In this document: piece by piece, positions 8,193 through 12,463 of the stretch
Layout of the letters: every line of letters begins with the position of its first letter
How positions within the stretch are numbered: the first letter of the stretch is position 1
Source of the DNA: an uncultured Fibrobacterales bacterium
GTDB lineage: Bacteria; Fibrobacterota; Fibrobacteria; Fibrobacterales; CAWVXU01
Reading direction: 5' to 3'
Assembly: GCA_963934255.1 (NCBI GenBank)
Contig: CAWVXU010000076.1
Span: forward strand, 1-12,658
Length of the DNA: 12,658 nt
The notes under the pieces: model-generated
What the model was told of the DNA's origin: nothing
Database searches by the model: none
What the model saw: only the letters and a program-made list of their open reading frames with translations
Translations under genes and position numbers: made by a program

Positions 8193-8735
8193 TTGAGAAA
8201 AATGAACATAATTATGGGGCTTTATCTGTTTATTCTGATGGCACCTATCTTGGCCCAAACATCTCTCATGTCCATGGGTTTTCAGATGGAGTTTGCTCAA
8301 GATAATGAGCTCATTGAAGCTCCTTATCGATTGACGCCCTGGGTTGCATTAGGACTCCCCAATGGTTTTTACACCAAAGGCCTCGTGACTTTAGCTCAAA
8401 ATAATCACATATCAGATGAGGGTAGAGAGACTGTGACTTATAGAAGCCTGGGTGCCGAGCTTGGTTTTTATGTTCCCTTAATATCTTTGCCTTATGTTTA
8501 TGGAACTGCCCAAAAAATATCTAGTCTTAAAAATGATCGCAGTGGTGATAGACATTGGTGGGAGTATGGGCTTGGAGTCGGTAACAAATGGCGCTCAGTT
8601 ACAGGGACTGCAATCTATGGTAACATCGAGTATCGATTTTATGAGAAACATCAAATCAATGGCAATCTGAATGATCAGTGGATTGAGGGCGAAGGTCTGA
8701 TGGTGGCACTTGGATTTGAGTGGGACTTGCTATAA
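8193..8735 (+). CDS. Hypothetical secreted protein, probable small outer-membrane beta-barrel
   Basis: Signal peptide (RKMNIIMGLYLFILMAPILA-Q), alternating amphipathic strands (SLGAELGFYV, YGLGVG, IYGNIEYRF) and a terminal strand LMVALGFEW. AAGGA (8181-8185) is 7 nt before TTG 8193, which is 1 bp after the rsgA stop. Alternative ATG at 8202. Confidence 0.65.
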   Translation: MRKMNIIMGLYLFILMAPILAQTSLMSMGFQMEFAQDNELIEAPYRLTPWVALGLPNGFYTKGLVTLAQNNHISDEGRETVTYRSLGAELGFYVPLISLPYVYGTAQKISSLKNDRSGDRHWWEYGLGVGNKWRSVTGTAIYGNIEYRFYEKHQINGNLNDQWIEGEGLMVALGFEWDLL

Positions 8736-9191
8736 TTATCGGCGTGGTTCAATTCCACTCTTACGAGCCATCTCAAACAAGATAGAGCGCACTTCGTCTT
8801 GTTTTTTGTCAATGACATAAAGGATCTCAATCTTACGAGCTTCTCTCCATGTGGCTGCATATTTGCGAGACCATTCATCTTTAATCACTTCGTTGTCGGA
8901 CTCACCCTCTTCAGCGCGAATCCATTTTTCTTTGTTAATCTCTTGAATAAGTGCTGCCATCTCAGAAGGCAAATGGATATATCCACGTTTGCCAACTAAA
9001 ATTTGAGTCGCCTCAATATAGGGATGTTTGACATCATTATCAATCAGAGTATCTGCAATAGATAGGATTGACACGTGATGTCGCTCGACAAAATCATTAA
9101 TCTGAACCTCAATGTCTTTAAGGTCTCCAGCTTCAAACTTCGCTTCCAGAGAGTTCTCTGGGTAATAAATTGATTTATAATCTTTTGTCAT
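8736..9191 (-). CDS. Hypothetical cytoplasmic protein (151 aa) with a DUF4032-like helical motif
   Basis: Fills the gap between neighbours exactly, ATG start, natural charged composition. EINKEKWIRAEE...EWSRKYAATWR resembles, from recall, the EILKHKWIESE...DW..K....WR motif of DUF4032-type proteins. Confidence 0.7.
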   Translation of the reverse strand: MTKDYKSIYYPENSLEAKFEAGDLKDIEVQINDFVERHHVSILSIADTLIDNDVKHPYIEATQILVGKRGYIHLPSEMAALIQEINKEKWIRAEEGESDNEVIKDEWSRKYAATWREARKIEILYVIDKKQDEVRSILFEMARKSGIEPRR

Positions 9192-9237
9192 GATGTAAAT
9201 TATAACAAATCAAAGCCAAATAGGTTATAATATTAAC
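9192..9237. promoter_or_regulatory. Symmetric divergent promoter with two consensus -10 boxes
   Basis: Inverted repeat ATTATAAC (9199-9206) / GTTATAAT (9224-9231). TATAAT on + at 9226-9231 is 6 nt before ATG 9238. TATAAT on - at 9204-9199 is 7 nt before ATG 9191. Confidence 0.7.
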
Positions 9238-10392
9238 ATGCATATAAATATCAAAACCGTACTTTTTTTGGCTTTTTTAGTTTGCCTTGAAGCATATGCT
9301 GGTTTTTTCCTAGAACCAGAGGTCCATTACTGGAACGGTCGGGTAGAAAAACAACAGAGATCTGTGTTAAAATGGGAGTCCATCGCACATGGTGAAACCA
9401 TTTTACATAACACTAAGCTTCGGACTTTTGCCGAATCTCAGATACAATTAAAATATTCTCCCGAGTGGTTTTTTAGTATCGGGCCAAACTCCTCAGTTGA
9501 CTATCTCTTTTCTCGTGGTGAGTCAGACCAGATACATCAGGTGAGTTTTTCTCTTCAATATGGTGAGACATTTTTTTCATTCCCTCAATGCCTTAGCTGT
9601 CAAAAGGCTCGTTTCTCATGGAATTTAGGTGATTATTTTCTCAAGGGGGAAAGTGCTGAGGTACTTCTGCAAAACTCGCCCGACGAGAAATTTATTTTTC
9701 TTTATGAGGGTTCTATCCAACTGAGTCTTGAGGGTAAGCAATATCTCCTCAAAGCACCTGTATTTGTGGATTTGCAAAGCAAAACACCATTGATCTTGCA
9801 TAAAAAACTCCCTGAACATAATTTTGATCTTTGGATTCCACCCATTGTGGAGCAGCAGTCGCTCAATAATCATCCCTCTCGTCGCAAAGCACTAGCGAGT
9901 CATATCCTAGTGAGCGACCCTGCCAGTAAGGTGAATTGGGACATCAAGAAATTATTTGAATCTTGGACCAGTGAGTACATGATGGACAAAACGGTACTCC
10001 ACCAAAATATTCAAAACATAAATGAGGTCCAAACAATCGAACCCAAGTTTAAGACTCTACTGAGTATAGATGTCAGTGAGTTTGATTTACAATCGAGTGC
10101 TTCCAACTGGACATTCAATGTCAAGATTGACGCCAAGATTACCAATATCCAGTCTAAAATTATTGAAGACCAGTGGACTTTTGAGCGAGTTTACAAAGGG
10201 GTGAGTCAAGAGGGTAGTGACTTGCGATTATTGAAATTTTTACCACTGAATTCCAAAAACAAGAAATTTGACAAATCCTTCTTTAATGGTTTCTGGGAGG
10301 ATTTTCAAAGTGAGCTCTTGATGCGTGGTATTGACCCCTTGTATGATGTTAATGGCAAGGGGGATAATGAGATTGATGTCATGTCTTGGTGA
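9238..10392 (+). CDS. Secreted protein with an N-terminal FecR-like domain and an uncharacterised C-terminal domain
   Basis: Signal peptide (KTVLFLAFLVCLEAYA). GETILHNTKLRTFAESQIQL...SIGPNSSV, LQYGE and LYEGSIQL follow the FecR beta-domain pattern. Confidence 0.65.
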   Translation: MHINIKTVLFLAFLVCLEAYAGFFLEPEVHYWNGRVEKQQRSVLKWESIAHGETILHNTKLRTFAESQIQLKYSPEWFFSIGPNSSVDYLFSRGESDQIHQVSFSLQYGETFFSFPQCLSCQKARFSWNLGDYFLKGESAEVLLQNSPDEKFIFLYEGSIQLSLEGKQYLLKAPVFVDLQSKTPLILHKKLPEHNFDLWIPPIVEQQSLNNHPSRRKALASHILVSDPASKVNWDIKKLFESWTSEYMMDKTVLHQNIQNINEVQTIEPKFKTLLSIDVSEFDLQSSASNWTFNVKIDAKITNIQSKIIEDQWTFERVYKGVSQEGSDLRLLKFLPLNSKNKKFDKSFFNGFWEDFQSELLMRGIDPLYDVNGKGDNEIDVMSW

Positions 10393-10503
10393 ATGCAATT
10401 CAAGCTGAGGACGTTAATTTGATTGAAATACCCTCCTAAAGCATCCTTGCTAAATTATTTCTATTATTCATTTCAACTCATTCCCCAGAGAATTGATAGT
10501 TTA

Positions 10504-11283
10504 ATGATCTTAATCCTACTTGCCACACTCTTTAGTCTAGGCTATTCCCAATCCGCTGACAACAAATTAGCTGAGTCGATGATGTCAATCTCTTCAGGAT
10601 GCTTCCAAATGGGGTCTGAAACTGGTGGCGATGATGAGAAACCCATCCATAAAGTGTGCTTAAAGTCCTTCAAGATGGATAAATACGAAGTCAGTCAAGA
10701 ACAATATCGTCAAGCCACCGGAGCAAGTCCATGGGATAAATGTTCTGGCCCCTACTGTACGCCTCCAAACCCTCAAGACCCTGCATATTTTGTCAACTGG
10801 GATGAAGCCAACTCCTACTGTCAAGCTCAAGGTAAGCGACTTCCGACAGAGGCAGAGTTTGAATATGCCACTCGAGCCGGGACAACGTCTATGTGGTTTT
10901 GGGGAGATGATGAGTCACGCCAATGTCAGTATGCAAATGTAGCTGATAAGTCCGCTAAGTCACAATTTCCGTCAATGGAATGGGCCAATAGTTGCGAAGA
11001 TGGATATGCCATGTTAGCTCCCGTAGGGAAGTATCAAGCCAATGCTTGGGGACTTCATGATATGACAGGAAATGTTTGGGAATGGGTCTCTGACTATTCT
11101 AGTGATGATTATTACAAAAGCTCTGCTTCAACTGATCCAACGGGTCCTACGAGCGGCTCCAATCGTGTGTTTCGCGGGGGCAGCTGGGGCAGCGGTGCTG
11201 CGCTTTTGCGTTCAGCCTTTCGCAGCGGAGATGCAGCCGAGCGTCGCAATGGCGTTCTTGGCTTCCGGTGTGCTCAGGACTAA
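10504..11283 (+). CDS. Secreted FGE-sulfatase (SUMF1/EgtB/PvdO family, CLec-fold) domain protein; candidate DGR target
   Basis: GCFQMGS, DEKPIHKV, KYEVSQ, VNWDEA..YC, RLPTEAEFEYATRAG, NAWGLHDMTGNVWEW, RGGSW, GFRC. A hydrophobic signal follows ATG 10504 (MILILLATLFSLGYS); the track's TTG 10423 start is less likely. Confidence 0.92.
   Translation: MILILLATLFSLGYSQSADNKLAESMMSISSGCFQMGSETGGDDEKPIHKVCLKSFKMDKYEVSQEQYRQATGASPWDKCSGPYCTPPNPQDPAYFVNWDEANSYCQAQGKRLPTEAEFEYATRAGTTSMWFWGDDESRQCQYANVADKSAKSQFPSMEWANSCEDGYAMLAPVGKYQANAWGLHDMTGNVWEWVSDYSSDDYYKSSASTDPTGPTSGSNRVFRGGSWGSGAALLRSAFRSGDAAERRNGVLGFRCAQD
11141..11283 (+). other. Putative DGR variable region (VR) and IMH
   Basis: Hand count over 11141-11280: 91/140 GC and 16/140 A, versus 22/60 GC in 11081-11140. 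NNY codons occupy the positions that are AAY in CLec-type DGR template repeats. Confidence 0.65.
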
Positions 11284-11344
11284 AGTTTTAAGGCTACATC
11301 CAACGAAGTAGAATTTAAATTCCCAAAATCGTATTGTTAGCCCT

Positions 11345-11350
11345 AGGAGG
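11345..11350 (+). promoter_or_regulatory. Shine-Dalgarno site of the GH16 gene
   Basis: AGGAGG 6 nt upstream of ATG 11357. Confidence 0.85.
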
Positions 11351-11356
11351 TTTAAT

Positions 11357-12463
11357 ATGCAATATCGTCTAAGTTGTTCACCACAAAACGACCTGACTCC
11401 TTCGAGTCTAGGCCTCTCCTCGCTTTTGGCACCTATCGTATTTCTGTTACTCATTGCCCTCACTACTTTAACCCAAGCTGCCCCCCCTTCCAACGATCTC
11501 ACCCTCGTGTGGCAAGATGAATTCGATGGCACAGATCTCGACTCAACCAAATGGAAGACGGCCCCAGAATGGTTTCGGCAAGGAGCTAGTTACTGGAGTC
11601 CGGATAACTATCACTTAAATGGCGCTGGTCGGCTGACCCTCAGTGTGACTGAATCAAATGGGATTGTGTATGCAGGGGCTATACGCACCCATAAACTATT
11701 TGATCAGACTTATGGCTACTTTGAAGTCAGATGTAAGCTTCCCCAGATCAAAGGTGGCTGGGCCGCGTTTTGGATGATGCCTTATGGAAATCATCCTGGG
11801 GATGCCGGGCGAGACGGAACTGAAATAGATATATTCGAAAGCATCAATGGTTGGAATAATAAAGTTCAACACGCTCTGCATTGGGATGGCTATGGCGTCG
11901 AGCATCAGAAGGTTTCTCAAAGCTTCACTCGATCTGACCTTTATGATGGAGGTTTCCATACTTTTGGAGTTTGGTGGACTGAGAACGAGTATATTTTTTA
12001 TATCGATAATGAAGAGACTTGGAGGACATCTGATGGTGGTGTTAGCCAAGTAAAGCAATATCTAAAACTGACTATGGAAGTGAGCAATGCTGATTGGCCA
12101 GGTAAGTGGTCCGAGCAAATAGAGAAGCCTATCCCTTGGATGATAGATTATGTGAGAGTCTATGAAGCTCAAGAGTCTGGGACTGTGAATATCCAAAAAG
12201 ACCCAAGCCATGCTCCTTTATACAGGCTTTCAATTTCAAATAATACAGTGAGAGTTTTGTTTGATAATCCGAGACACCTGCAAGATTACAAAATAGAGGT
12301 TTGGGATCTTAAGGGCTCTCTGATTTCAAAAGATTCCAAGATAGAGAGTGCTGATTACCTCATCAACTTGGCTGCATACACTGAGGGCGTTTATTTTGTT
12401 CGAGTGACTCATTTGAAATCAAACCAGATCACTGTGACTCCATTTCAACATCTTGCTCAATGA
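11357..12463 (+). CDS. Glycoside hydrolase family 16 with signal peptide and T9SS type A-like C-terminal sorting domain
   Basis: LVWQDEFDG, YGYFEVR, WAAFWM, catalytic EIDIFE (ExDxxE), FHTFGVWWT, FYID, IDYVRVY. The tail IEVWDLKG...INLAAYTEGVYFVRV matches the Por secretion tail pattern. Substrate cannot be determined by eye. Confidence 0.93.
   Translation: MQYRLSCSPQNDLTPSSLGLSSLLAPIVFLLLIALTTLTQAAPPSNDLTLVWQDEFDGTDLDSTKWKTAPEWFRQGASYWSPDNYHLNGAGRLTLSVTESNGIVYAGAIRTHKLFDQTYGYFEVRCKLPQIKGGWAAFWMMPYGNHPGDAGRDGTEIDIFESINGWNNKVQHALHWDGYGVEHQKVSQSFTRSDLYDGGFHTFGVWWTENEYIFYIDNEETWRTSDGGVSQVKQYLKLTMEVSNADWPGKWSEQIEKPIPWMIDYVRVYEAQESGTVNIQKDPSHAPLYRLSISNNTVRVLFDNPRHLQDYKIEVWDLKGSLISKDSKIESADYLINLAAYTEGVYFVRVTHLKSNQITVTPFQHLAQ

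Follow-up and report, generated by a model that had tools for sequence, protein, structure and literature searches.

The window, that is, the whole stretch of 12,658 nt that was analysed, corresponds to contig C76; the assembly has 2.67 Mb, 38.6% GC and a completeness of 92%. Runs that contain most of the window are marine metagenomes. The window's central feature is a gene for a 259-aa FGE-sulfatase (C-type-lectin-fold) protein (10504..11283, + strand, as are all window features below; PF03781, E 2.9e-54), which starts at the ATG at 10504; the frame is open from a TTG at 10423, and the 259-aa form is present in the protein collection. Its nearest named homologue carries the label Fibrobacterota, probably the phylum of the window as well. 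The neighbouring ORFs are of the housekeeping type, and inspection of the window's ORF list gave no hint of a prophage or mobile element. An AT-rich spacer without a stable hairpin follows the stop codon (11284..11356); no GC-rich inverted repeat was found downstream, the DNA fold of 11255-11360 (-4.3 kcal/mol) being matched by 192 of 200 shuffles, and the RNA fold of the gene's 3' end showed nothing unusual (z -0.63). Next comes a GH16 glycoside hydrolase gene (11357-12463), whose product has a C-terminal tail of the Por/T9SS type; a paralogue of this gene, 68% identical in DNA over 443 nt, lies on contig C23. On the other side, three genes without Pfam matches (8193-10392; 180, 151 and 384 aa) have counterparts in genome G004 (L279) that are alike in size, order and orientation, two of them confirmed by sequence. 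At that syntenic place other ORFs come after the three genes, and the FGE and GH16 genes are absent; nor was an orthologue of the FGE gene found in G001, the sole same-family genome (78% complete). At positions 10512 and 11575, both run X1 and run X2 have contigs whose base differs from that of the window.

The structure model of the FGE protein (pLDDT 78) matches FGE, PvdO and TvpA. The best structural matches are formylglycine-generating enzyme (2Q17, human SUMF1) and PvdO, with TM ~0.76, and the fold of TvpA (2Y3C) is matched at E 9e-16; a CLec1-type region was found at the C-terminus of the FGE-sulfatase domain. Formylglycine-generating enzyme possesses two loop cysteines after RGGS, which we take to be its catalytic cysteines, whereas in the alignment to 2Q17/6MUJ the loop of the window protein is shorter and has neither of them. 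As both cysteines are absent and the protein scores far below all NCBIfam enzyme cut-offs, the modelled fold makes a binding role like that of TvpA the likeliest function. A hydrophobic N-terminus (10504..10560), read from the sequence, is a probable secretion signal; the first 32 residues lack Cys, and the protein is therefore not an obvious lipoprotein; it is probably secreted. A glycan is conceivable as ligand, a guess that draws on the downstream GH16 gene. In the sections of PMC5758913 considered here, TvpA and the category 'b' FGE-sulfatase/CLec1 targets are likewise described with a C-terminal CLec1-type region and without the FGE catalytic loop.

A preliminary description of this DNA had pointed to a sharp GC step inside the gene, and the step is real. 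GC is 36.7% at 11081-11140 and 63.6% at 11141-11283, close to the ~37% and 65% first given, while the 11% A stated for the latter part was a little low (12.6%). The tail had been placed from 11141, but the reading frame starts at 11140, and the GC-rich, adenine-poor tail thus comprises 47 codons plus the stop (11140..11283), the 47 codons having 64.5% GC and 12.1% A. With a tail-minus-body GC difference of +0.195, the gene ranks first of 1945 mechanically called genome ORFs of at least 150 aa (mean -0.012, sd 0.044), and at least 62% GC over 143 nt is reached at only 6 places in the assembly. Most of the step is due to amino acids (Gly/Arg/Ala/Ser), which under genome codon usage would give 53.8% GC. 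The codon choice adds to this: GC3 is 27/47 against 14.5 expected (p ~1.5e-4; z-score rank 8 of 1945 ORFs) and A3 is 3 against 12.6 expected (p ~2e-4). At the 13 codons that had been predicted to be variable, 12 are NNY as originally counted; 9.3 are expected from the residues (p = 0.059), and the count taken alone is weak evidence. Three parsable tails among the genome's five other FGE-family genes lie at 36-38% GC. Of 94 FGE loci examined elsewhere, 21 could not be parsed; a GC jump of at least +0.18 was seen in 3 of the other 73 tails, and the composition is therefore a lead rather than a proof; the jump by itself was rejected as proof of a DGR. Positive controls for the GC-jump signal were positive in two of three cases. 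A CLec template was present in 6 of 14 hand-picked genomes with jumps of at least 0.11 and in 2 of 33 others, an association that is only a hint since none of the six templates matched its own genome's tail at A only.

Much of this composition could be accommodated by an ordinary FGE C-terminal motif, in which Gly/Arg/Ala residues are combined with chance codons and any likeness to a template reflects the shared protein family. The part of the GC content owed to amino acids, the p-value of the NNY count and the 3/73 tails that jump as much are all compatible with such a motif, as is the occurrence of RSAFRxG in conserved orthologues. It leaves the excess of GC3 and the deficit of A3 unexplained, however, and the 36-38% GC of the genome's own paralogue tails speaks against it, as do the template comparisons described below.

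DGR retrohoming is established to copy the non-A sites of a template and to randomise A (PMC5758913, as far as the sections considered here describe it). The preliminary description had expected a near-identical template, a DGR-class reverse transcriptase (RT) and avd, and paralogous FGE genes sharing the 3' DNA, none of which was found in the genome. By blastn there is no second copy of the tail in the 92%-complete genome, TR-type patterns also gave none, and the best result of an A-tolerant scan of every genome position had 18 non-A mismatches with 25/114 identities. PF00078 had 0 matches in the genome, and the RT of the related genome G175 (described below), used as a query, had 0 matches at E <= 1. 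For Avd (PF22296), 0 matches were obtained in the window's genome (G000), while G173 and G175 gave weak ones. No stand-alone HRDC gene was found in the genome, its sole HRDC match ending an ORF that by eye is RecQ-like, and the 3' DNA of the tail is not shared by the five other FGE-family genes. A DNA search of 41 related genomes returned only short matches at the conserved GNVWEW region. No template-like contig was present among the contigs of four runs at 80% likeness. In viral contigs, three stricter patterns gave 0 matches and a loose pattern gave 14 VR-like tails, which are unrelated. Pattern scans had 0 matches in the genome contigs and 2 in metagenome contigs, namely a 99.7% identical strain and an unrelated GC-rich gene. 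No match to a template-type pattern was obtained in 284 of the 296 genomes from this phylum, but the same pattern missed the G175 template. An RT match in the same-family genome G001 was rejected as a DGR, as the fragment reads by eye like a eukaryotic LINE-type RT; this fragment (L016, G001:C628) lies on a small contig that is probably a contaminant of the G001 assembly. Wu et al. recognise non-adjacent targets by a template in the genome that differs from them by A-to-N changes only (PMC5758913, same sections), and the window gene has no such template in its assembly.

A protein search of the 296 genomes placed the closest same-order homologues of the window gene in G174 and G175, and synonymous codons of the window tail proved to be common to one G175 paralogue. 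The RTs of G175 were examined after this likeness had been seen, so that the choice of G175 was not blind. On G175:C169, an HRDC gene (146 aa) and an RT gene (329 aa) are followed, directly after the RT stop, by an Asn-rich repeat with the frame typical of CLec templates. The adjacent HRDC gene and the Asn-rich repeat suggest that this cassette is a DGR of the HRDC type (architecture C), a type for which remote targets have been described (Wu et al. 2018; PMC5758913, sections considered here). The cassette (L213, G175:C169:1-1970) lies on a short contig without an adjacent target; its genome has ~52% GC and belongs to the same order as the window's and to a different family. The template predicted in the preliminary description from the window alone resembles this real template beside a DGR-type RT.

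The putative fossil variable region of the window gene (11155..11273) aligns without gaps to the G175 template (119 nt, 66% identity; core G175:C169:250-366, minus strand). At its end, an 18-nt constant block in an IMH-like position (11256..11273) is identical to the template and includes the codon CGG, which makes up 4% of the genome's Arg codons; 12 of these 18 nt had also served as a search word, and the tests were redone without them. Of the 13 predicted variable codons, 12 align with AAY in the template and one with GAC. Across the 117-nt core there are 40 differences, of which 23 fall on template A, all at codon positions 1-2, and 17 on non-A, with 14 of the latter at codon position 3; at codon positions 1-2, template adenines thus hold 23 of 26 differences. 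The non-A positions of the template have 72% GC and, of the 23 adenines that changed, 13 have become G, which together account for the GC step. The window's own template was not found, so that the comparison is with a relative's, from which the tail has 17 non-A differences; this and the lack of a downstream hairpin weigh against a DGR origin.

The non-A sites provide the test that counts, since differences at a template's Asn codons are to be expected of every FGE tail. At these sites none of 127 FGE tails comes closer to the G175 template than that of the window, with the G175 paralogues next, tails found by window-derived patterns having been excluded. At codon positions 1-2 the window differs at 3 of 47 sites (median 13, rank 1) and at codon position 3 at 14 of 38 (median 25, rank 1 of 127). 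Conversely, the G175 repeat is the closest to the window among 27 template-like repeats (17/73 non-A mismatches; next, 23/74). Where tail and template share a residue, 15 of 22 codons are identical against 7.1 expected from a position-specific background of 161 tails (p 1.8e-4); once the 12-nt search word is left out, the figures are 11 of 18 and 5.7 (p 0.006). These p-values are optimistic and the kin are not independent, G175 having been noticed partly through its window-like tail. One background tail, L031, equalled the window's score in the codon test (1/161), and had itself been found with a window-derived pattern. An A-only target of the G175 template was not found among the G175 paralogues examined, 2 of 12 candidates being scored in one test, and there is thus no sign that this element is active. 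Four FGE paralogues elsewhere in G175 (L182, L159, L237 and L181) have a graded, decayed likeness to the template. Neither the first rank among 127 tails nor a synonymous identity that is specific to the tail, beside a saturated body, is explained by an ordinary FGE motif, which we therefore regard as improbable.

The gene body has a different history. Its synonymous sites are at chance level against 14 of 15 homologues, the remaining one giving p 0.03; in L182, for instance, 24 of 80 body codons are identical (24.9 expected) against 13 of 22 in the tail (4.1 expected). A tree of 40 bodies groups the window gene with six orthologues of another order (98/92) and then with L155 and L159 (99/96). 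Third positions match the template at 16 of 22 in the window and at 5-9 of 22 in five of the six sister genes (L152-154, L156 and L157), so the template likeness does not come from the body's ancestor. Judged from these sequences, tail and template share a younger ancestor than the body and any sampled gene. RSAFRxG is common to the window and to undiversified-looking sister genes, and two of the 'variable' residues, its Phe and Gly, may be ancestral. The differences at third non-A positions (14/38, with saturation near 25) correspond to ~0.5 changes per site, a rough figure to which drift of the template itself contributes. The most recent rewriting would hence postdate the body's split from its homologues and predate the split of the sampled strains.

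A related account places the work of the DGR in another organism, from which the tail reached this gene through recombination or came along with a transferred gene, the present lineage never having carried the element. The gap at the syntenic place in G004 and the missing orthologue in G001 fit such an entry, as does the ~52% GC of the template's genome. The codon usage of the body, however, is close to that of the host genome (GC3 84 against 72 expected, A3 as expected) and the body is saturated against all homologues, so a transfer of the whole gene would be older than the tail, and a swap of the tail only, with ends exactly at the template's ends, is the product of retrohoming itself. We consider this origin unlikely, if marginally less so than an ordinary motif.

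The preliminary description had proposed a current or former target that gives a hypervariable protein. The predicted sites are constant among the strains: none of the 13 residues differs among 9 cluster members (93-100% identity; 6 distinct proteins over the last 224 aa), which are invariant from F223 to D259, nor is there variation at these sites in X2, X5 or L124. Run X2 and a further metagenome contig are identical over the tail. Strain X5 has 34 differences in 794 nt; those in the tail are two synonymous sites and a Thr-to-Ala change (11149/11151) that lies outside the template-like stretch, on its upstream side. A third-base change, at a non-A site, falls in a predicted variable codon. 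Variable columns number 1 of 41 in the tail and 17 of 183 in the body, and a tail more conserved than the body was rejected as not significant (p 0.21). The comparison is based on contigs, not reads, with some records filtered out, and the informative runs are X2 and X5 only, X6 being without tail coverage and X1 maybe the window's source. In this lack of strain variation the window gene differs from TvpA-type targets (PMC5758913, sections considered here).

A live remote target would require that the cassette is missing from the assembly and that variants are hidden by selection. The 92% completeness of the assembly leaves room for this, the cassettes of relatives lie on contigs of 2-3 kb, contigs drop rare variants, and purifying selection can mask activity (PMC8144416, in the part considered here). 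On the other side, neither the contigs of four runs nor the pattern scans yielded a template, and the strains share all 13 residues although two independent rewrites, at the rate of a live pair, should differ at ~20 of 32 adenine sites. The third-base change in X5 is moreover at a site that retrohoming would reset. We regard continuing activity as very improbable; of the two states originally proposed, that of a former target is supported by the template (AAY at 12 sites, GAC at 1); present diversification in trans finds no support in the assembly, in the other FGE-family genes or in the strains.

Hence, we hypothesize, with a probability of roughly 0.7, that the last 40 codons are an old, frozen variable region of a non-catalytic FGE/C-type-lectin-fold protein whose element the genome no longer seems to contain. 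On this view, these codons would have been overwritten in an ancestral genome with the template of a DGR akin to G175's HRDC-type element, the faithfully copied non-adenine positions leaving GC-rich codons like those of the template in a genome of 38.6% GC and the randomised adenines leaving NNY codons at positions predicted to face the ligand. Still before the divergence of the sampled strains, the retroelement would have been lost or have ceased to recognise the FGE gene; a single variant with many small residues would have become fixed, and the third positions of the tail would have drifted toward genome usage.

Orphan targets of this kind are already known. Nimkulrat et al. (2016) reported target genes left in Treponema denticola isolates without RT and TR (PMC4891356; the comparison covers the part of that paper considered here). 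Like the window gene, these leftovers are FGE/CLec targets in genomes that have neither RT nor template, they differ from a relative's template with a bias to adenines, and the relatives' element is of the HRDC type. In T. denticola, however, the template is from the same species and nearly all differences are at A (19 of 21 in the published example), whereas the nearest template to the window tail is of another family and leaves 17 of 40 differences at non-A sites; the overall adenine bias (23/40) is weaker than published. With so many non-A differences and a saturated body, the window relic would be far older than those of T. denticola, and its description as an unusually old orphan variable region is well supported. 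Orphan targets being known and the FGE gene not being hypervariable now, the surprise is modest. Literature searches brought up no publication on this FGE gene, nor one on old frozen targets in the phylum; DGRs of this order may be listed in the target tables of PMC5758913 and PMC8144416. A variable region can be recognised from codon scars alone and then confirmed by a template of another family, even where the body is saturated. According to Roux et al., surveys based on gene neighbourhoods overlook remote targets, and DGRs are rarely found in the open ocean (PMC8144416, in the part considered here). Surveys that require a nearby RT and template miss such genes, so that DGR-shaped binding proteins are undercounted.

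A wider, tentative and rather doubtful idea is that DGRs of this order act as passing mutators of successive FGE/CLec paralogues, leaving a datable decay ladder against one template lineage (the window gene, L182, L159, L237 and L181), and that the window gene has been domesticated and is held by selection. If so, a ligand specificity made by a DGR would have been fixed across an entire marine species and selected long after the element had left. In G173, another genome of the order, two template/target pairs on separate contigs (L200/L235 and L216/L239) have 17/17 and 14/17 differences at template A, respectively, and are apparently live DGRs; the pair with all 17 differences at A shows that such elements work in bacteria of this order, which favours the frozen-region reading. 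A second DGR-like element of G175 (L210, G175:C191) has an Avd-like gene, and the Asn-rich repeat that precedes its RT is a different one. Further afield, the FGE homologues L110, L097 and L058, whose records are labelled Methylomonas, Pirellulales and Acidobacteriota, respectively, each have a local template, with 17/17, 16/16 and 15/17 differences at A.
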